From IMG/VR virus record IMGVR_UViG_3300015202_000002, positions 1 to 38,013 of that record: 38,013 nt of DNA. One strand, 5' to 3'. The position numbers and the translations under genes are program-made. This stretch comes from a virus. The notes below the pieces were generated by a model, which had not been told where the DNA came from, searched no databases, and saw nothing but the letters and a program-made list of their open reading frames with translations. This document shows, piece after piece, positions 6,723 to 26,708 of this stretch. Position 1 is the first letter of the stretch, and each line of letters begins with the position of its first letter.

Positions 6723-7430
6723 ATGGATAATAGTGTTATGGATAACGTGTCTGATACAACTCAGGCTCAGGGGCAAGAGACTGCTCAGCAAGCACAAGAG
6801 CGTCTTTTTAAGCAATCCGAGTTAAATGAGATTGTAGGGCGAGCCAAGCATGATGCGGTTGAAAGCTTTAAACGGCAACAACAAACGCAATCTGCGCAAC
6901 AAGCACCGCAGTCTAGTCAAGCTCAAAGCTCTAAATCATTATCGGAAGATGATGTTAAGCGGTTAACAGGCGAAGAGTTAGCACGCCAACGCGATCAATG
7001 GACTCGTGAAGCCCAAGAGAAAGCGGACGCAGAAATAGCTCAACGTATTGTAAGCAGCTACAAAGAGAAAATTGCGCCTGGGAAAGAGAAGTACGAGGAT
7101 TTCGAGGCCGTCACTAATAATGTCGATATGAGATATTATCCAAATGTCGTTCAGCTTTTAGCCGAGTACGTGGATAATTCCCATGATGTTATTTATGAAC
7201 TAGCAAAGAACAGAACAAAACTGTATCAGCTAGAATCAACGTGCGGTCACAACCCTCAAGATGCCATCTACGAGATTAAGCGTTTGTCAGATTCCATCAA
7301 AGCAAACGAATCAACATCTCAGATGAAACATGCCAATAGCCCTTTATCACAACAACGACCTTCTAACACCGGAACGGATTCGGGTAATTCTCTGTCGATG
7401 CGTGATTTAAAAGCCAAGTATCGAGGATAA
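6723..7430 (+). CDS. Scaffolding protein
   Basis: 235 aa, Gln/Glu/Lys-rich helical low-complexity sequence, immediately upstream of the coat gene. Confidence 0.7.
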   Translation: MDNSVMDNVSDTTQAQGQETAQQAQERLFKQSELNEIVGRAKHDAVESFKRQQQTQSAQQAPQSSQAQSSKSLSEDDVKRLTGEELARQRDQWTREAQEKADAEIAQRIVSSYKEKIAPGKEKYEDFEAVTNNVDMRYYPNVVQLLAEYVDNSHDVIYELAKNRTKLYQLESTCGHNPQDAIYEIKRLSDSIKANESTSQMKHANSPLSQQRPSNTGTDSGNSLSMRDLKAKYRG

Positions 7431-7473
7431 GCTCTGAATTCTAACTTAAGGATTAAAGTTAGGAGTAACTAAC

Positions 7474-8790
7474 ATGGCTGTTTTCCCAAATAATATTTTA
7501 CAAACCGTCCAAACCTATCAAAGGTCAGGACTTGCGCTGTTACAGAACTTATGTTGTCATATTTCTACAGCTAGTACAAAATTTAAAGATTTTGATAAAA
7601 TTCAGGCCAACTTGGGTTCTGCTGTTACCTTCGATTTGCCGCCTCGTGCGACTACAACTGCTGGTCTTGTTGCGTCATTCCAACCTGCTGTACAACGTGT
7701 ACAACAATTGATTTGTGACCAAGCAAACAACAGTTCATTCGCTGTTACATCTCAACAACGTATCTTCAACTTGGAAAAAGGCGAAGAAGATTACATGCGT
7801 GTGTTTGGTAAGTCATTCATCGCTGAATTGGCTACACAAGTTGAAGGCAACGTTGCTCTTAACTGGGCATCGGCTGTTCAAAGTCAATTAGATGGAACTC
7901 TAAATACATTTTCAGGCCCATATCGTTATTTCGGTAATGGTTCTACTGCTCTAACCTCTTACCAACAATTAGCGCAAGCTATTATGTTCTTCAAGAACTA
8001 CGGCTCTGTAGCAGAGGGTATTAAGGTTTACCTTCCTGATACTGTAGTTCCTGCTGTCGTGGGTAATGGACTTAACCAATTTGTACCACATCGTAACGAT
8101 GAAATCGCTATGTCTTGGGAAATTGGGGATTTCGGTACTCCATTAGTAAGCTACTATCAGTCAAACTTAATGCCGATTCACGTATCTGGTGACACTGGTG
8201 TTAATCAGCAAACATTGACTGTTGTAAGCACTAACGATCCAACAGGACAAAACGTAACTCAAATCACTGTAAGTGGTGCGACTGCGAGCGATGCTAATGC
8301 CGTGTTCTCTGGTGACTTGTTTAGCTTCCAAGACGGTGTTTCTGGTCAGCCTAACATGCGCTACTTAACGTTCATTGGTCACTTCCCAAGTGCTAACCAA
8401 GTTCAGTTCCGAGCAACTGCTAACGCTGCTGCTAACTCTGGTGGTGTTGTAACAATTAACATTACTCCTGCGCTTAACTGGGCTGGCGGTCAAAATCAAA
8501 ACTTGAATAACCCAATCGCGGCTGGAATGCAAATCCTCGGAGTTGCTTCTCACAGATGCGGCGGTATTTTGGGTGGCGATGCGTTTTATTTGGCAATGCC
8601 TCAATTACCAGAACAACGTCCTTATGACACTGCAAATGAGTATGACGATGACACTGGTGTGTCTATGCGTTTGACCTACGGTTCTTTATTCGGTCAAAAC
8701 GAGACAGGCATGATTTATGACGAAACACATGGTTCTGTAATCGTTCCTGAATACTCCATGCGCTATGTCATTCCATTGTCTCAAGGTTAA
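7474..8790 (+). CDS. Major capsid (coat) protein, P22-coat-like
   Basis: 438 aa, AGGAG SD, follows the scaffold gene, followed by a hairpin. Size and layout, including an inserted-domain-like segment, resemble P22 gp5 by eye. Confidence 0.82.
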   Translation: MAVFPNNILQTVQTYQRSGLALLQNLCCHISTASTKFKDFDKIQANLGSAVTFDLPPRATTTAGLVASFQPAVQRVQQLICDQANNSSFAVTSQQRIFNLEKGEEDYMRVFGKSFIAELATQVEGNVALNWASAVQSQLDGTLNTFSGPYRYFGNGSTALTSYQQLAQAIMFFKNYGSVAEGIKVYLPDTVVPAVVGNGLNQFVPHRNDEIAMSWEIGDFGTPLVSYYQSNLMPIHVSGDTGVNQQTLTVVSTNDPTGQNVTQITVSGATASDANAVFSGDLFSFQDGVSGQPNMRYLTFIGHFPSANQVQFRATANAAANSGGVVTINITPALNWAGGQNQNLNNPIAAGMQILGVASHRCGGILGGDAFYLAMPQLPEQRPYDTANEYDDDTGVSMRLTYGSLFGQNETGMIYDETHGSVIVPEYSMRYVIPLSQG

Positions 8791-8795
8791 TTGTC

Positions 8796-8834
8796 GAGTA
8801 GGTGACTAATCATCACCTACTTAAACTCATTTTA
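8796..8834 (+). terminator. Hairpin / partial terminator after the coat gene
   Basis: GTAGGTGA (8798-8805) pairs with TCACCTAC (8813-8820), 7-nt loop, then TTAAACTCATTTT. Confidence 0.5.
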
Positions 8835-8848
8835 AGAGGATTAATAAA

Positions 8849-9715
8849 ATGCCTACAGCTCAAATACAAAATGAAACCATATATGCGTTACCTCGCTTAT
8901 ATATTCAAGGCTTGCAATTGTCAGCCGCTACACCTACTGCTGCTACTGTAGTTTGTGTTGCCCCTGGTGCTGCAAGAGATTCTACTAACAGTATCGATAT
9001 GGTCGTAGGGCTACAAAACTACTTCGGAATTGATAATCCAGCTCAATTGTTTAATGGCTACCAACCTGGATTATTCATCAATTCAGCGGTTAATGGTACT
9101 AATGGATTGGACACTGGAACAATTGCTGCTAGTACTCAATACGCTGTGTATTTAATTGGTGATTCACGTAATTATCAAAATACTGCTGCTGTATTAAGTT
9201 TAACCAGCAATACCGCTCCTCTGTTACCAGCAGGCTATGACTCCTATCGTTTGATTGGATTCTGGGCAACTGATGGTTCCAGTCACTTTGTGTACGCAAC
9301 TGTTAAGCCACAAAACATTGGCGGATTGTTGACTTATTTCAACTCTCCAGCGGTTTCTGTCTTGTCTGGTGGTACTGCCACTTCTTTCACTGCGATTGAC
9401 CTGACTACTAACAGTGCAATTCCTACTACTACACTTCAGAACATAATCGTTACTTTGTTAGTAACTTTTACACCCGTAGCAATTGGCGACACTGTTCAGT
9501 TTAGACCTACAGGTTCCAGTGCTACTGGTGGGTTACCAATAATTACAGGTGCGGTAGCAGGAATTGCTCAAAGCCAATACATCCAAGTAATAGCTGGTGT
9601 TGGTTCATCTAAACCTGAAATTGACTACAAAGTAACTTCTGGTTCTGATGCTGTGAGTGTCTCTGTAGTTGAATGGGCTGGTGTATCTAACAGCGCTTAC
9701 CCTGCTCTAGTTTAA
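8849..9715 (+). CDS. Virion structural protein (288 aa), function unknown
   Basis: Track ORF between the coat and adaptor-like genes. Thr/Ala/Gly-rich beta-type sequence. Confidence 0.7.
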   Translation: MPTAQIQNETIYALPRLYIQGLQLSAATPTAATVVCVAPGAARDSTNSIDMVVGLQNYFGIDNPAQLFNGYQPGLFINSAVNGTNGLDTGTIAASTQYAVYLIGDSRNYQNTAAVLSLTSNTAPLLPAGYDSYRLIGFWATDGSSHFVYATVKPQNIGGLLTYFNSPAVSVLSGGTATSFTAIDLTTNSAIPTTTLQNIIVTLLVTFTPVAIGDTVQFRPTGSSATGGLPIITGAVAGIAQSQYIQVIAGVGSSKPEIDYKVTSGSDAVSVSVVEWAGVSNSAYPALV

Positions 9716-9736
9716 TAACTTAAGGAGTGAGTTGTT

Positions 9737-10486
9737 ATGCCATATTTAGCTCAGGACTTAATAACTCGCTCCTGGTTTTTATCAGGGATTGTTGCTCGTA
9801 ATTTGCAAATACCTACAGGCGATCAAATCTATGATGGCTTGCAGATGCTTAATGATTTGCTCAATTTTAAACAGATTGAGACCGATTTAATTCCATATTG
9901 GACTTATATCGAGTTACCTCTTGTGGCCAATCAAGAGTACTATTTTCTTCCTTATGTAGCTGCGATTGAGTCGGCCACCTTTAATATTGATGTTGTGCGT
10001 TACCCTATGGATTATGTCAGCAGACGTAACTATTACGGTTCATCACGAGTTGATAATATTTCAACACTACCTTTTAGCTGGAACTATAATCGGGCATTAG
10101 GTGGCGGCAATATGGCTTTATATTTTAAGCCTGAGTCAAATTACCCCATGAAGATGATGGTTAAGTTATTTCTAGTGGATGTAACGTTAACCACAGACTT
10201 AACTAATATTTCTGAAATCGTTCCATATACCTTTGTTAATAGCGCAAATCAAGGTCTTGATACTGCGTATATAGAATATCTGCGATACGCTTTAGCACAG
10301 TACATGTGTAGCGAATACGGTGTTCTATTTAATCCAGAATCTGAAAAGATACTTACAAAATACATGCGAAAACTTATGTGGGAAAGCCCACCAGACCTAT
10401 CAAGTATCAAGACAAGTATCTTAACTGAATGCCAAGGATTGAACTGGGGTGATATCAATATTGGTAAGGGCTGGCGACCCTCATAG
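9737..10486 (+). CDS. Putative head-to-tail adaptor (P22 gp4 position)
   Basis: 249 aa. Call is by synteny (coat ... adaptor ... gp10-like hub) only. Confidence 0.55.
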   Translation: MPYLAQDLITRSWFLSGIVARNLQIPTGDQIYDGLQMLNDLLNFKQIETDLIPYWTYIELPLVANQEYYFLPYVAAIESATFNIDVVRYPMDYVSRRNYYGSSRVDNISTLPFSWNYNRALGGGNMALYFKPESNYPMKMMVKLFLVDVTLTTDLTNISEIVPYTFVNSANQGLDTAYIEYLRYALAQYMCSEYGVLFNPESEKILTKYMRKLMWESPPDLSSIKTSILTECQGLNWGDINIGKGWRPS

Positions 10487-10530
10487 GAAAGGGTTGGCGC
10501 CCTAATATTAATTTGTTACTATTCCTCTGA
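10486..10530 (+). pseudogene. Relic second copy of the 3' end of the upstream gene (GKGWRP NINLLLFL stop), out of frame
   Basis: 10486-10503 (gga aag ggt tgg cgc cct) versus 10463-10480 (ggt aag ggc tgg cga ccc): 14/18 identical, and all 4 differences fall at codon third positions. Confidence 0.45.
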
Positions 10531-10546
10531 ATTAATTAAAGAGGAA
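10522..10546 (+). promoter_or_regulatory. Hairpin sequestering the Shine-Dalgarno of the nuclease gene
   Basis: TTCCTCT (10522-10528) pairs with AGAGGAA (10540-10546). The right arm is the only SD for ATG 10551. Confidence 0.55.
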
Positions 10547-10550
10547 GAAA

Positions 10551-11156
10551 ATGATTGTAAAAATATGCGCGGAACATGGTGAGTTAACTGAAAATTTAGC
10601 CCATCAAGAAAAAAACAAAAAATGTAAATCTGGTTTTATGTGGCGTTGCAATCAATGTAAACTAGAAAAAGACAGGCGATGGAAAGAATTAAATTGGGAG
10701 CAACACAAAGAGTCAGCAGGAAAGGCTCGCTCTAAGGCAAGAGAAAATTATAGAAATGGATTTATTACTGAAGAGCCAAAGGCAAATGTTTGGGGCCGCC
10801 AATACAGGAAAGATAATCCAGAATTGCATAGTGAATGGGCAAGAAGAGGAAGAGAGAGGCTTGGCCCGTTAAGAAATATTAGAGAAATTACCCGTGTCAG
10901 AGGCATTACTCTAGATGAATATTATGCGATTGAAGGGAAGCAAAATGGTAAATGTTCTATTTGTAATTGCGAAGAAACTAGAAATAATAGAAGTGGGTCT
11001 ACTGCTAGATTATGTTTAGACCATAATCATACTACTGGACAAGTGCGCGAGTTATTATGTCATGCTTGCAATCAAGTTATAGGGCATAGCAGAGAATCTA
11101 TTGAAATACTAAAAAACGCGATAAGCTATTTAGAAAGACAAAAGCACATAGATTAA
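10551..11156 (+). CDS. Endonuclease VII-family (HNH-like) nuclease with N-terminal Cys-rich region
   Basis: C-terminal KCSICN...LCLDHNHTTGQVRELLCHACNQVIG matches the T4 gp49/Endonuclease_7 signature (DHxH-TG-VRGLLC-xCN). Located inside the tail module. Confidence 0.8.
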   Translation: MIVKICAEHGELTENLAHQEKNKKCKSGFMWRCNQCKLEKDRRWKELNWEQHKESAGKARSKARENYRNGFITEEPKANVWGRQYRKDNPELHSEWARRGRERLGPLRNIREITRVRGITLDEYYAIEGKQNGKCSICNCEETRNNRSGSTARLCLDHNHTTGQVRELLCHACNQVIGHSRESIEILKNAISYLERQKHID

Positions 11157-11171
11157 CCCCATTAACCAAGG

Positions 11172-11366
11172 ATGGTTACTATGAGTGATAGACCTAATTT
11201 GATTGACCATGAGGTCAGATTAAGACTTATAGAAAAAAGACTTGATGATTGCGATAAAAAAGACAAATCGCATCAAGATACATTGAAAGGACAATTTACA
11301 TGGATAATTGGCACAGTAATCACATCCATAAGCGGACTGATACTTCATGCTATTAAGTTAATTTAA
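11172..11366 (+). CDS. Small tail-anchored membrane protein (XhlA-like architecture)
   Basis: 64 aa: charged helical N-terminus, then W-IIGTVITSISGLILHAI transmembrane segment. The start may be ATG 11181, which has better SD spacing. Confidence 0.6.
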   Translation: MVTMSDRPNLIDHEVRLRLIEKRLDDCDKKDKSHQDTLKGQFTWIIGTVITSISGLILHAIKLI

Positions 11367-11375
11367 GGATGATTG

Positions 11376-13094
11376 ATGGTTGCTCGCGGGCAGAATTTCA
11401 GACAATTTCCAGTGAATGTAGTAGGTTCAAGCATCTTCGGGCGTTATCCGAAAATCAGCATTGAAAAAACCTACAATATGTTCATGTCTGATAAATTCAT
11501 GGTTCCTTATGCGGGCTATAATATTGGAATAACATCAGCCGACTTTGCAAATGCCATTCAGGGCAGAGCTATCTTTACCAGTACAAAATTCGATGAATTA
11601 GTGGTAGTCGAAGGTAACGGTGTCTACCTTGTGAACATTGTTTACAATCAACGTAGAGAAGAAATAACCTTTTTTCAAGTTTTTAAAATTGGAACATTAC
11701 AAACTCAAACGGGTGTTGTTTATATTGCTGAAAACAATAAACCTCAGATTGGAATTTCTGACGGTACAGCTTTTTATATTTACGATCCAACTCTCGACCC
11801 AGTATTTCAAGCCGTTCCATTAAATTTTAAACCTGGATATCTAACTTTCCATGATACCTATTTTATTTTAGCGGCTTCTCAGGATAATACCTATACTCCT
11901 CGTGCTAATAATACGTGGCGTTTATCAGGACAAAATGATGGACTAACATGGAGTTCAAATAGTGCCAGCGTAGGATTATTACAAACTAAACCTGATAATG
12001 TTCAAGCTGTGGTGCGCTTCCCCTCTAAAGGTAATATGATATTTGTAATGGGAAGCATTGTAACCGAAGCATGGTTTGATACCGGAGCACAGTTATTCCC
12101 CTATCAACGTAACAACCAATTTAATATCGACTATGGTTGTCTACAACCTGCCACAGTTGCCTATATGGATGAATTTGTAGTCTGGTTGGCTCAAAATGAG
12201 AGAAGTGGTCCAATTATTGTATATTCTGACGGTGGTATGCCCAAAAAGATTACTACTGACGGTATTGATTATCTGTTCTCAACGCTACAAGACCCTGAGG
12301 ATTCACAAGCTTTCCTTTATCGACAAGATGGACATTTGTTTTATCATATTAATTTTTATACCGATAATCTTTCATTGGTTTATGATTTTTCTACCGAAAA
12401 GTTTTACCACGCTTGTGACCAGAATCTTAATTATTTCATAGCCTCAGAAGTAGCATTTTTCAACAATCAATATTATTTCATATCAAAAAACAATGGTAAT
12501 TTATTTGTATTTGATACCACCATTACCACCTATCAAGATATAGACAGCTTAGGCAATAAAGTCACGCATGAAATCCCACGCATCAGAGCGTGTGCCAATA
12601 TTCGTACTCCAGACCAAAATTATCAGATTATTAATGATATTGGGTTTACGATTGAGTCAGGCGAAACGGATTATGAACAGCAGTCATTAGGCGAAATCAT
12701 CTTGATTACTCAAGATGGGAATATTTTGATTACTCAAGGTGGCATCCCTGAGTTAATTACGCAATCAGGGAACCCAATATTATCTCAAGATGGCACAATA
12801 TTTATCATGCAACAAAATCCAGGTGGCACCAACACCGCTGAATTAATTGCTCAGCAAGACGCTAACACTGGATTTAGCAATCTATCTTTACCGCACGTTG
12901 ATTTATCTATATCAACTGATGGCGGCGCATCATTTGGTAATGAATGGGCATATTACTTGCCAGCTATAGGACATCGAAAGAATAGATTGATGTGGTGGCA
13001 GATTGGAATTGCCAATGATTTTGTACCTCAATTTAAATTCTGGGGAATGGGTAGATTTGTGGTAACGGATGGCATAGCAAACACAAGGGTATAG
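11376..13094 (+). CDS. Tail hub / DNA-stabilisation protein (P22 gp10-like)
   Basis: 572 aa from ATG 11376 (TAAGGA SD). The C-terminus LSISTDGGASFGNEW...RKNRLMWWQIG...FVVTDG resembles the P22 gp10 C-terminus (SATTDGINYGRE...RVLWKRVG) as I recall it. Confidence 0.7.
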   Translation: MVARGQNFRQFPVNVVGSSIFGRYPKISIEKTYNMFMSDKFMVPYAGYNIGITSADFANAIQGRAIFTSTKFDELVVVEGNGVYLVNIVYNQRREEITFFQVFKIGTLQTQTGVVYIAENNKPQIGISDGTAFYIYDPTLDPVFQAVPLNFKPGYLTFHDTYFILAASQDNTYTPRANNTWRLSGQNDGLTWSSNSASVGLLQTKPDNVQAVVRFPSKGNMIFVMGSIVTEAWFDTGAQLFPYQRNNQFNIDYGCLQPATVAYMDEFVVWLAQNERSGPIIVYSDGGMPKKITTDGIDYLFSTLQDPEDSQAFLYRQDGHLFYHINFYTDNLSLVYDFSTEKFYHACDQNLNYFIASEVAFFNNQYYFISKNNGNLFVFDTTITTYQDIDSLGNKVTHEIPRIRACANIRTPDQNYQIINDIGFTIESGETDYEQQSLGEIILITQDGNILITQGGIPELITQSGNPILSQDGTIFIMQQNPGGTNTAELIAQQDANTGFSNLSLPHVDLSISTDGGASFGNEWAYYLPAIGHRKNRLMWWQIGIANDFVPQFKFWGMGRFVVTDGIANTRV

Positions 13095-26074: not shown

Positions 26075-26089
26075 AATAGTTGCTCTCTC

Positions 26090-26115
26090 TGGTTAAAGTT
26101 ATTATCTATGGTTAA
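26090..26115 (-). promoter_or_regulatory. Leader direct repeats TGGTTAA x2 (plus-strand reading) in the 5' UTR of the exo operon
   Basis: TGGTTAA at 26090-26096 and 26109-26115. The same pair occurs at 34002-34008 and 34024-34030. Confidence 0.5.
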
Positions 26116-26167
26116 ATAAACAAGTCCGTTGTTCATGTTACCTTCCTTAGTTGCCTAATCACTGGCA

Positions 26168-26203
26168 TTGACACATCATGACAAATAGAATATCATTTGT
26201 CAA
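26168..26203. promoter_or_regulatory. Overlapping divergent promoters sharing a 24-bp palindromic operator
   Basis: Rightward: TTGACA 26168-73, N17, TATCAT 26191-96. Leftward (minus strand): TTGACA 26203-26198, N17, CATGAT 26180-26175. Palindrome TGACAAAT-N8-ATTTGTCA at 26179-26202. Confidence 0.7.
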
Positions 26204-26232
26204 TACCAATTACATTATGTTAGAGGTTATTT

Positions 26233-26412
26233 ATGAAGTTCTGCGAAGTCATGATCTATTATGATTATAACATGAGTGCTATCGCTAGAGCTTTGGAGAC
26301 AAGTAGACAGTACGTAGCCTTATGGCACAAAAACGACAAGATACCTTATCCAAAGCAATGCGAGCTTGAGGTATTAACGAAAGGTGAGTTGAAAGCTAAC
26401 AAAGGGGATTAA
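26233..26412 (+). CDS. Cro/YdaS-like HTH regulator (59 aa, below cutoff)
   Basis: MKFCEVMIYYDYNMSAIARALETSRQYVALWHKNDKIPYPKQCELEVLTKGELKANKGD. First gene downstream of the rightward promoter. Confidence 0.7.
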   Translation: MKFCEVMIYYDYNMSAIARALETSRQYVALWHKNDKIPYPKQCELEVLTKGELKANKGD

Positions 26413-26414
26413 TT

Positions 26415-26621
26415 ATGAGTAGTGCTGCGAAGTACACACAAGAACAATTGGATATTGCGATTTTAAAGAACACCAACGAAGGGATTTTGAGAACTCTATC
26501 TCGCATAGAATCAGAGATTAAAAGTCATTTTCATTGGACTATGGGTCTTATATTTGGACTATATACCATCGGAATAGGTGGATTAATAAGTGCTGTTGGT
26601 AAAGCTTATGGGGTGTTTTAA
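26415..26621 (+). CDS. Small tail-anchored membrane protein (XhlA-like architecture)
   Basis: 68 aa: helical N-terminus, then HW-TMGLIFGLYTIGIGGLISAV transmembrane segment. Same layout as 11172-11366. Confidence 0.65.
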   Translation: MSSAAKYTQEQLDIAILKNTNEGILRTLSRIESEIKSHFHWTMGLIFGLYTIGIGGLISAVGKAYGVF

Positions 26622-26707
26622 TGACAGGCGATTTCACAGCAGCAGTATTGTTTATATGCGTGGCAGCCGTAGTAATCACATACATAATTTGCAATAGGGA
26701 TAGATAA
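26621..26707 (+). CDS. Tiny hydrophobic peptide (28 aa, below cutoff)
   Basis: MTGDFTAAVLFICVAAVVITYIICNRDR. TAATG overlap with the previous gene. Confidence 0.45.
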   Translation: MTGDFTAAVLFICVAAVVITYIICNRDR

Positions 26708-26708
26708 C

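Follow-up and report, generated by a model that had tools for sequence, protein, structure and literature searches.

A duplicated gene end at the edge of an HNH endonuclease cassette in an uncultivated phage, probably retained as promoter DNA

In phage T4, the operator of the homing endonuclease I-TevI overlaps the promoter of the endonuclease gene and agrees with the homing site of the enzyme at 15 of 20 positions (Edgell et al. 2004, reviewed in PMC2988022), and similar operator arrangements have been proposed for I-TevII and the HNH enzyme I-TevIII (PMC2988022). A promoter located inside a hairpin at the ribosome-binding site has been described for I-TevI, I-TevII, I-TevIII, segB, and mobE of phage Aeh1 (PMC2988022). 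In fungal mitochondria, partial C-terminal duplications of atp6 and cob are found beside free-standing homing endonuclease genes (PMC6279837). Here we describe a locus that can be compared with each of these systems in the IMG/VR virus record IMGVR_UViG_3300015202_000002, whose 38,013 nucleotides (nt) are called the window below. In this locus, an HNH-type endonuclease gene follows the gene of a structural protein of 249 amino acids (aa), and 18 nt from the end of the latter gene (copy 1) are repeated between the two genes (copy 2). We conclude that copy 2 is probably an old non-coding duplicate of the end of the target gene, kept as part of the promoter of the HNH cassette. Comparison with related loci supports this reading through the position of copy 2 at the cassette edge, its conservation in the cassette family, its non-coding status, the constant promoter geometry, a hairpin, and a 249-aa gene whose 3′ end differs in ancestry from the rest.

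The locus shares with the I-TevI operator a target-like sequence positioned 5′ of the endonuclease open reading frame (ORF) over its own predicted promoter, with a match of 14 of 18 positions versus 15 of 20. Unlike I-TevI, however, the endonuclease is free-standing instead of intron-encoded and belongs to the Endonuclease VII/HNH type, the predicted promoter is sigma-70-like instead of T4-late, the box directly abuts the putative target as a tandem repeat, and its operator role is putative. As in the T4-type arrangement of a promoter within a hairpin, a predicted promoter dedicated to the endonuclease gene is so positioned that transcripts from it would be without the hairpin 5′ arm. The present lineage differs in being uncultivated and podovirus-like and in having −35/−10 promoters, and the arrangement is deduced from 36–37 distinct cassettes instead of mapped transcripts. 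The HNH gene resembles the mob genes of T-even phages, and intronless homing with co-conversion, in that it is intergenic, is present or absent in close relatives, has a conserved neighbor as its likely target, and shows mosaicism in its flank. It differs from the T-even mob genes in encoding a nuclease domain of the Endonuclease_7 type and a Cys/His-rich region at the N terminus. As with fungal atp6 and cob, a second, non-functional 3′ end of the host gene accompanies the insertion of an endonuclease at the end of that gene. The fungal duplicate, however, is hundreds of bases long, is located on the far side of the endonuclease ORFs, and has the appearance of a decaying relic, whereas the duplicate described here is 18 nt long, lies between the gene and the endonuclease, and is probably conserved as regulatory DNA.

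Duplicated gene end and insertion joint

Copy 1 (ggtaagggctggcgaccc, positions 10463–10480, plus strand) consists of the functional GKGWRP codons, the last six sense codons before Ser-TAG (10481–10486), and the gene ends with ggt aag ggc tgg cga ccc tca TAG. Copy 2 (ggaaagggttggcgccct, positions 10486–10503, plus strand) forms the left edge of the HNH cassette as a non-coding gene-end box and reads gga aag ggt tgg cgc cct. Copy 2 begins with the last base, G, of the TAG stop codon, which puts it in the −1 frame with respect to the gene. The copies are identical at 14 of their 18 bases, and the four differences (positions 10465, 10471, 10477, and 10480 in copy 1) are all located at third codon positions. 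The frame of copy 2 reads GKGWRPNINLLLFL followed by a stop codon, ending at 10530. An earlier note on this DNA had interpreted copy 2 as the displaced 3′ end of a diverged allele of the same gene. We found its coordinates, its sequences, the restriction of the differences to third positions, and the NINLLLFL-stop extension to 10530 all to be accurate, and its calculation of a 15/3060 chance of such a restriction to be right.

A relative of the 249-aa protein is encoded by 108 IMG/VR contigs, 80 of which (57–96% identical) were kept, and the comparisons below cover 77 distinct junctions, 40 with and 37 without an HNH gene; the related loci are denoted by L numbers. A position weight matrix was constructed from 67 distinct native gene ends, among which the motif GGNNNNGGNTGGCGNCC is nearly invariant at non-wobble positions, and the whole window was scanned on both strands. 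Copies 1 and 2 scored 26.2 and 24.4 bits, respectively, while the next-best site in the window scored 12.8 bits; the 99.9th percentile of the best matrix score in random 152-nt stretches of related loci was 13.5 bits. As another source of copy 2, we considered a duplication of the downstream ribosome-binding region ccAAGGATGGtta at 11163–11175, and rejected it because the match is much poorer than that to the gene end. A relation between the gene end and ribosome binding was seen in a different form in L042, L052/L053, and L080, where the GWRP codons act as the ribosome-binding region of the following gene or are similar to one. At these loci (L052:4770-4790, L053:3080-3100, L080:4690-4710, and L042:4756-4778), the 249-aa gene and a 573-aa gene overlap, the stop codon of the former coinciding with the start of the latter (ggatggcgtccATGAtaacc), and the GWRP codons occupy the place where the ribosome-binding site of the 573-aa gene must be. 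In L042, a second copy (gaaaaggatggagtccgcATG) is in the ribosome-binding role.

The HNH gene (10551–11156, plus strand) is the sole one in the window and encodes a 201-aa homing endonuclease of the Endonuclease VII type, as judged from its matches to Pfam PF02945 (Endonuclease_7, E = 2.8e-20) and to the PHROG "endonuclease VII" families; its PDB matches, to Hpy99I and T4 endonuclease VII, cover the nuclease domain only. The inserted cassette extends approximately from 10487 to 11140 (plus strand, ~650 bp), its edges being set by breaks of homology. On the left side, the window and L003 display 95% nucleotide identity over 7001–10489, beyond which L003 has a different insert. The HNH-less loci L001 and L002, with a 96% identical 249-aa protein, align up to 10488 and again from 11179. 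The loss of homology at 10488–10489 indicates that copy 2 is the first 18 nt of the insert, which confirms the proposal of the earlier note that it sits at the joint of the nuclease insertion. On the right side, homology resumes at 11135–11142 to L017 and L004, which have other cassettes, and at 11179 to L001. The HNH-less junction of the L001 type reads GGTTGGAGACCTTCATAGGAGGCATCTATG; in L001/L002, TCATAG-gaggcatct-ATG brings the stop codon directly to gaggcatctATG of a small gene.

As in a free-standing homing endonuclease cassette, close relatives either have or lack the HNH gene at this one site, and the flanking genes are left undisrupted. An HNH gene directly follows this stop codon in 40 of the 77 distinct junctions, and the encoded proteins are 30–94% identical to that of the window; the junction after the 249-aa gene is a hot spot for homing endonuclease cassettes. 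The predicted homing endonuclease would cleave the endonuclease-less allele site-specifically and bias inheritance in favor of the cassette. A scan of viral contigs with the HNH protein gave no match, and a metagenome scan with an alignment of HNH proteins gave relatives that were only up to 64% identical. The closest HNH proteins (94% down to 51%) were traced from the protein database to their contigs, and one relative of ~40% identity was taken from the metagenome scan.

The borders of the cassettes displayed some additional features. At the right border, the direct repeat ATTAACC is present at 11152–11158 and 11161–11167, and the last ~5 HNH codons (cacatagattaa) lie in sequence common to L017 and L004, which carry different cassettes. 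Cassettes and inserts of other subfamilies (L003, L017, L022, L026, L049, L004, L046, and L036) share a starting motif, (g/t)(a/c)CAAT(t/a)TGTAT, in the ~15 nt that directly follow the stop codon; the motif is loosely similar to the native gtCAATATTGGT, which encodes Val-Asn-Ile-Gly. In L034 (3879-4794) and L035 (1505-2420), the stop codon is followed by two tandem HNH-like ORFs, the second of which comprises the nuclease domain only.

The last ~100–135 nt of the 249-aa gene share the ancestry of the cassette donor. At sites where L003 and L083 differ, the window agrees with L003 as far as 10285 and with L083 between 10352 and 10486. The mismatches between the window and L003 number 0–4 per 50 nt over most of the gene and 15–18 per 50 nt from about 10287, and the identity to L083 peaks at 94–100% across the junction. 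Compared with L081, whose HNH protein is 94% identical, there is one mismatch in the last 24 nt and there are 15 in the preceding 46 nt, with a sharp start at ~10463. We therefore assign a probable co-conversion tract to 10352–10486 (plus strand), with its sharpest version from about 10463. The switch from L003-like to L083-like ancestry between 10285 and 10352 supports the suggestion of the earlier note that the flank was co-converted. Both copies are inside the L083-like tract, and hence neither is the displaced end of the resident gene. The free-standing homing enzymes of T4 usually cut hundreds of base pairs from their own gene. In contrast, the shortest exchanged tract here, seen in the comparison with L081, begins no more than 24 nt from the insertion point, suggesting that the cut may be close by. 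As a caveat on co-conversion, the 249-aa gene is mosaic elsewhere too: the patches at 9787–9836 and 9987–10036 diverge from L003, with 17 and 9 mismatches per 50 nt, respectively, versus 0–1 around them.

Conservation of the box, predicted promoter, and hairpin

The box was compared among 11 distinct relatives of the window cassette, whose HNH proteins are about 40–94% identical to that of the window. All 11 have the consensus GGAnnnGGTTGRCGnCC at the same place. Most of them display a common layout in which the functional gene end, G-x-G-W-R-P-(S), and its stop codon are followed by GGAnnnGGTTG(A/G)CGnCC, 17 variable bases, and TA(T/C)(T/C)AT, and then by a pyrimidine run, a loop, the Shine-Dalgarno sequence, and ATG. 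Box positions 2, 8–11, 14, 16–17, and 19 and positions 32, 33, and 37 in the −10 hexamer are fully invariant (2.0 bits), and box positions 1, 3, 7, and 13 are nearly so, while positions 5–6, 15, and 18 and the spacer (20–31) are near random (mostly 0.2–0.7 bits). The box has thus remained unchanged while the spacer was randomized, indicating that it is old and under purifying selection; it does not evolve without constraint, as a neutral relic would.

A significant gene-end box after the stop codon is found in 14 of the 40 distinct junctions with an HNH gene versus 2 of the 37 without one (Fisher p = 0.0016). Some HNH-less loci have a gene-end box or a −35 remnant after the stop codon (L042:4756-4775, L030:4750-4850 [L030/31/33], L018:4491-4530, and L051:1465-1500), and L025 (4750-4860) has a box together with only the C-terminal ~26 codons of an HNH gene. 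The HNH-less boxes and the truncated HNH gene of L025 are likely footprints of cassette loss.

The predicted −35 hexamer of the window cassette (10494–10499, plus strand) is TTGGCG and lies within the box; the corresponding hexamer is TTGACG in 7 of the 11 cassettes and TTGAAG in one. A TG extension (10514–10515) precedes the predicted −10 hexamer TACTAT (10517–10522, plus strand), which is 17 nt from the −35 hexamer. T32, A33, and T37 of the −10 hexamer and the 17-nt spacing are constant in all 11 cassettes, and the TTG of the −35 hexamer is invariant while the spacer varies. Across the cassettes, therefore, two hexamers stand 17 ± 1 nt apart at a conserved position with a variable spacer, as is characteristic of sigma-70 promoters. 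The predicted family promoter (TTGACG, 17 nt, TATTAT) is a near-consensus sigma-70-type promoter, and relatives match the consensus at 10 of 12 positions. In the wider set, 24 of 37 distinct cassettes have a promoter of at least 9/12 at this site, with a spacer of 17 nt in every case, and the −10 hexamers of these promoters end 26–32 nt before the ATG, abutting or overlapping the 5′ arm of a hairpin. The strongest sigma-70-like match in the window is located elsewhere, at 26168–26196 (TTGACA, 17 nt, TATCAT; 11/12), in the gap between divergent gene blocks (26075–26708), suggesting that host-type −35/−10 promoters are used by the phage.

The hairpin (10522–10546, plus strand) is formed by a 5′ arm, TTCCTCT (10522–10528), which pairs with AGAGGAA (10540–10546), the Shine-Dalgarno sequence of the HNH gene. 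Its pyrimidine run starts at the end of the −10 hexamer. In 33 of 36 distinct cassettes, the pairing probability of the Shine-Dalgarno sequence exceeds 0.6; the stem sequences vary widely, as illustrated by GCUUCUCUUU/AAAGAGAAGC in L170 and AAUAUUCCUU/AAGGAAUAUU in L079. The position of the hairpin is shared by L081–L088, L169–L172, L055, L060, L068, L079, L089, L096, L097, and others. The mean z score of the hairpin is −3.2, whereas three control genes gave values between −0.6 and +0.2. The capsid gene start, used as a fourth control, is also structured (z = −2.65); the segment concerned, the 40 nt 5′ of a 438-aa putative capsid gene (~7430–7476), is unusually structured across the relatives, −2.65 being its mean. 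The paired Shine-Dalgarno sequence and the −10 hexamer abutting the 5′ arm reproduce the promoter-in-hairpin arrangement of the T4 I-TevI and mobE type.

These features suggest a history and a present role for copy 2. It is likely to have begun as a duplicate of the conserved gene end, probably that of a donor allele, which would have been carried in through an illegitimate left join when the cassette first joined a new genome just 3′ of the resident stop codon. In L034, the resident gene ends with GYTPG, yet the box reads ggatggcgcac, and the box thus seems to be foreign to the resident gene. The boxes of L096 and L079 even retain a stop codon (after GHGWRP and GRGWRPV, respectively) and, except for one codon in L079, differ from the resident ends only synonymously. 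The foreign box of L034 and the stop-bearing boxes of L096 and L079 fit a donor allele end having been carried in. Since then, copy 2 would have traveled with the cassette as non-coding DNA, and it would persist as regulatory DNA in which the core TTG(G/A)CG acts as the −35 hexamer of a sigma-70-type promoter. Transcripts of the cassette would start at ~10529, ~7 nt past the −10 hexamer and just past the 5′ arm of the hairpin. The own transcript of the cassette, lacking the 5′ arm, would be translatable, while a read-through late messenger RNA containing the hairpin would not allow expression of the nuclease.

Several points weigh against this promoter reading. The promoter of the window itself matches at only 8 of 12 positions, is rescued only by its TG extension, and is below the threshold of a generic scan. 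A host sigma factor of the sigma-70 type is presumed, and the transcription start at ~10529 is a predicted position. The −35 hexamer explains only box positions 9–14, and not GGA (1–3), GG (7–8), CC (16–17), or A19, whose conservation points to another constraint that is also acting. In addition, the register of the box differs in other subfamilies: it is inside the spacer in L068, L060, L043, L006, and L097, abuts the −35 hexamer in L089, L171, and L055, and is upstream of it in L096 and L170. The −35 role thus cannot be the whole reason why such boxes persist.

Alternative readings of copy 2

The resemblance between the two copies might be attributed to chance, because the repeat is only 18 nt long. 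The two copies are, however, the top two matrix matches in 38 kb, by more than 11 bits, and the arrangement recurs in many independent contigs; we regard the probability of a chance match as negligible. It is also highly improbable that copy 2 is translated, through a −1 frameshift or stop read-through, to give an alternative C-terminus of the 249-aa protein. All that favors translation is that the −1 frame is open for 14 codons in the window and in L083; there is no slippery heptamer 5′ of the stop codon, and in-frame read-through does not yield GKGWRP. In 8 of the 11 cassettes, TGA replaces the TGG of the window at codon 4 of the −1 frame, and several of them have more stop codons. The TGA codons argue that copy 2 is non-coding and was not recently coding. 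The intact GKGWRP reading of the window is an accident, resulting from TTGGCG in place of TTGACG plus AAG at the free second codon, and the NINLLLFL-stop stretch corresponds to the spacer and −10 box of the predicted promoter together with the hairpin 5′ arm.

The proposal of the earlier note, that copy 2 is the displaced 3′ end of a diverged allele at a recombination joint, here taken as a neutral relic left by an event in this genome upon arrival of the nuclease, shares several observations with the promoter reading. Copy 2 is indeed homologous to the gene end and located at the joint, its differences are restricted to wobble positions, and the flank is co-converted; L096 and L079, with their stop codons, provide fresh-looking cases, and partial C-terminal duplications of host genes accompany free-standing homing endonuclease genes in fungal mitochondria (PMC6279837). 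However, the derived bases A3 and T9 are shared by 11 distinct cassettes with randomized spacers, indicating an old and selected element; the presence of the same box in these relatives also speaks against an event in this genome, and the location of both copies in the L083-like tract speaks against a displaced end of the resident gene. The TGA codons in 8 of the 11 cassettes are equally unfavorable, and the expectation that related alleles would carry the relic extension failed: none of the 77 distinct native ends has a tail like NINLLLFL, and no allele ends with GKGWRPNINLLLFL. After the G[WYF]xx motif (GWRP in most), these ends have a stop codon in 31 cases, S in 33, and 1–2 other residues in the rest. 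The wobble-only pattern, which had been taken as a trace of coding history, is family-wide. In 13 loci, the differences between copies 1 and 2 number 11, 5, and 63 at the first, second, and third codon positions, respectively, and 3, 0, and 52 when the variable codon 2 is excluded (i.e., 52 of 55 at third positions), reflecting the conservation of the non-wobble bases in a non-coding element. The homology of copy 2 to the 3′ end of the same gene is therefore retained, whereas its interpretation as a displaced coding relic is not; as first formulated, the neutral relic is largely refuted, and we consider it improbable.

Two further roles are compatible with that of a promoter element and would add to it. 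One of them, to which we give some tentative weight, is that copy 2 and its tail are the 3′ arm of an RNA stem-loop enclosing the stop codon, which might act as a processing, stability, or insulating structure on read-through late messenger RNA. In the predicted stem-loop (10456–10515, plus strand), the 3′ end of copy 2 and the tail pair with a 5′ arm made up of the Asn-Ile-Gly-(Arg/Lys) codons, which lie just 5′ of copy 1 and at its beginning, and the stop codon is left in the loop. The segment 10455–10550 folds at −32.9 kcal/mol (z = −4.5), and none of 200 shuffled sequences folded as well. Among the 11 cassettes, 72.7% of the outer helix is paired, versus 29–43% for slid partner columns; five pairs are changed on both sides, and the covariation score of 0.152, versus 0.068, was reached by 1 of 500 shuffles. 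The arms of the same locus pair better than those of different loci (−8.9 vs −6.9 kcal/mol, permutation p = 0.005). The stem would also explain the conserved CC (16–17) and A19, which are partners of invariant coding bases. On the other hand, it is weak or absent in four to five relatives, including L081, L084, L172, and L092 (z about 0), its register differs between the Lys and Arg alleles of codon 2, the coding sequence of G-R-G-W-R-P is intrinsically self-complementary (GGNCG/CGNCC), and kinship among the sequences inflates the covariation counts. The absence of a U-tract after the stem shows that it is not a classic terminator. An intrinsic terminator at 10490–10503 was likewise rejected, since its 5-bp stem is lost in the relatives with TTGACG and the larger stem lacks a U-tract, and an Rfam search over 10200–11400 gave no credible match. 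A DNA cruciform serving as a substrate of the Endonuclease VII-like enzyme was also rejected, because the inverted repeat exists only in genomes that already have the cassette. The tail of copy 2, a reverse complement of the codons before copy 1, may have resulted from fold-back repair synthesis at GGNCG/CGNCC or from selection for pairing.

The other role, which we consider less likely than not, is that copy 2 mimics the homing site and is bound by the HNH protein, acting as an autorepressor operator over the cassette promoter. The box resembles the conserved gene end beside the insertion site, which is the putative homing site, and covers the −35 hexamer. Diverse HNH genes (30–94% identical) are all located directly after this stop codon with differing downstream sequences, which leaves, we infer, no plausible recognition sequence other than the conserved gene end. 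The bases of copy 2 that do not vary coincide with those fixed among the natural targets (GG, GG, TG, CG, and CC), and wobble positions 15 and 18 and the whole of codon 2 vary, as expected if copy 2 is a second binding site for a protein that reads the non-wobble bases. The box of every subfamily overlaps or adjoins the core promoter, being located over the −35 hexamer, in the spacer, or abutting the −35 hexamer, and the I-TevI operator, with its match of 15/20 to the homing site and its overlap with a late promoter (PMC2988022), is a precedent. On this reading, the HNH protein would bind the operator and repress transcription without cleaving it. Against it, overlap with the promoter is almost unavoidable in an intergenic region of only 64 nt, a need for copy 2 to base-pair with copy 1, which is under coding constraint, would produce the same periodicity of conservation, and the box is visibly decaying in the subfamily that has it inside the spacer. 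If copy 2 is an operator, the codon-periodic pattern GG-n-nnn-GG-n-TG-n-CG-n-CC would be a natural read-out of the target bases recognized by the enzyme, homing sites would be predictable from promoter-proximal boxes, and I-TevI-style autorepression would extend to free-standing homing endonucleases of the Endonuclease VII type in an unrelated group of uncultivated phages.

The promoter reading of copy 2 implies that a short "pseudo-coding" repeat beside a mobile nuclease gene can be selected regulatory DNA and not debris; in annotation, copy 2 should be given neither as a 14-codon frame nor as a "pseudogene". The regulatory logic of the T4 homing endonucleases, with their own promoter in a hairpin at the ribosome-binding site and a target-like box at this promoter, would also be extended to another phage lineage, which has promoters of a different type. 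The boxes provide a concrete and cheap experimental handle on the recognition sequence of an uncharacterized family of HNH homing endonucleases. The comparison defines a hot spot between the 249-aa gene and an Hc3/gp10-like gene in widespread ~38–40-kb metagenome phages, at which at least four cassette subfamilies come and go, leaving recognizable footprints.

Target gene and its neighborhood

The 249-aa structural gene (9737–10486, plus strand), whose 3′ end is duplicated, is the left homology arm of the cassette. It is flanked by a 288-aa gene and the gene of a 573-aa protein, and its upstream neighbors are the 438-aa gene (7474–8790, putative capsid) and the 288-aa gene. The 249-aa protein had no Pfam match, no PDB match, and a PHROG match of unassigned function only, and the gene region matched none of 50,697 GenBank phage records at either the DNA or the protein level. 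The label "adaptor" in the earlier note is a positional guess; it rests on the position of the gene, because the protein has no informative family or structure match. The downstream 573-aa protein matches the PHROG "head closure Hc3", and its relatives match the Pfam family Phage_stabilise. A small gene (11181–11366, plus strand) lies downstream of the cassette; it encodes a protein of 61–64 aa with a C-terminal hydrophobic segment and is located directly 3′ of the 249-aa gene in L001/L002.

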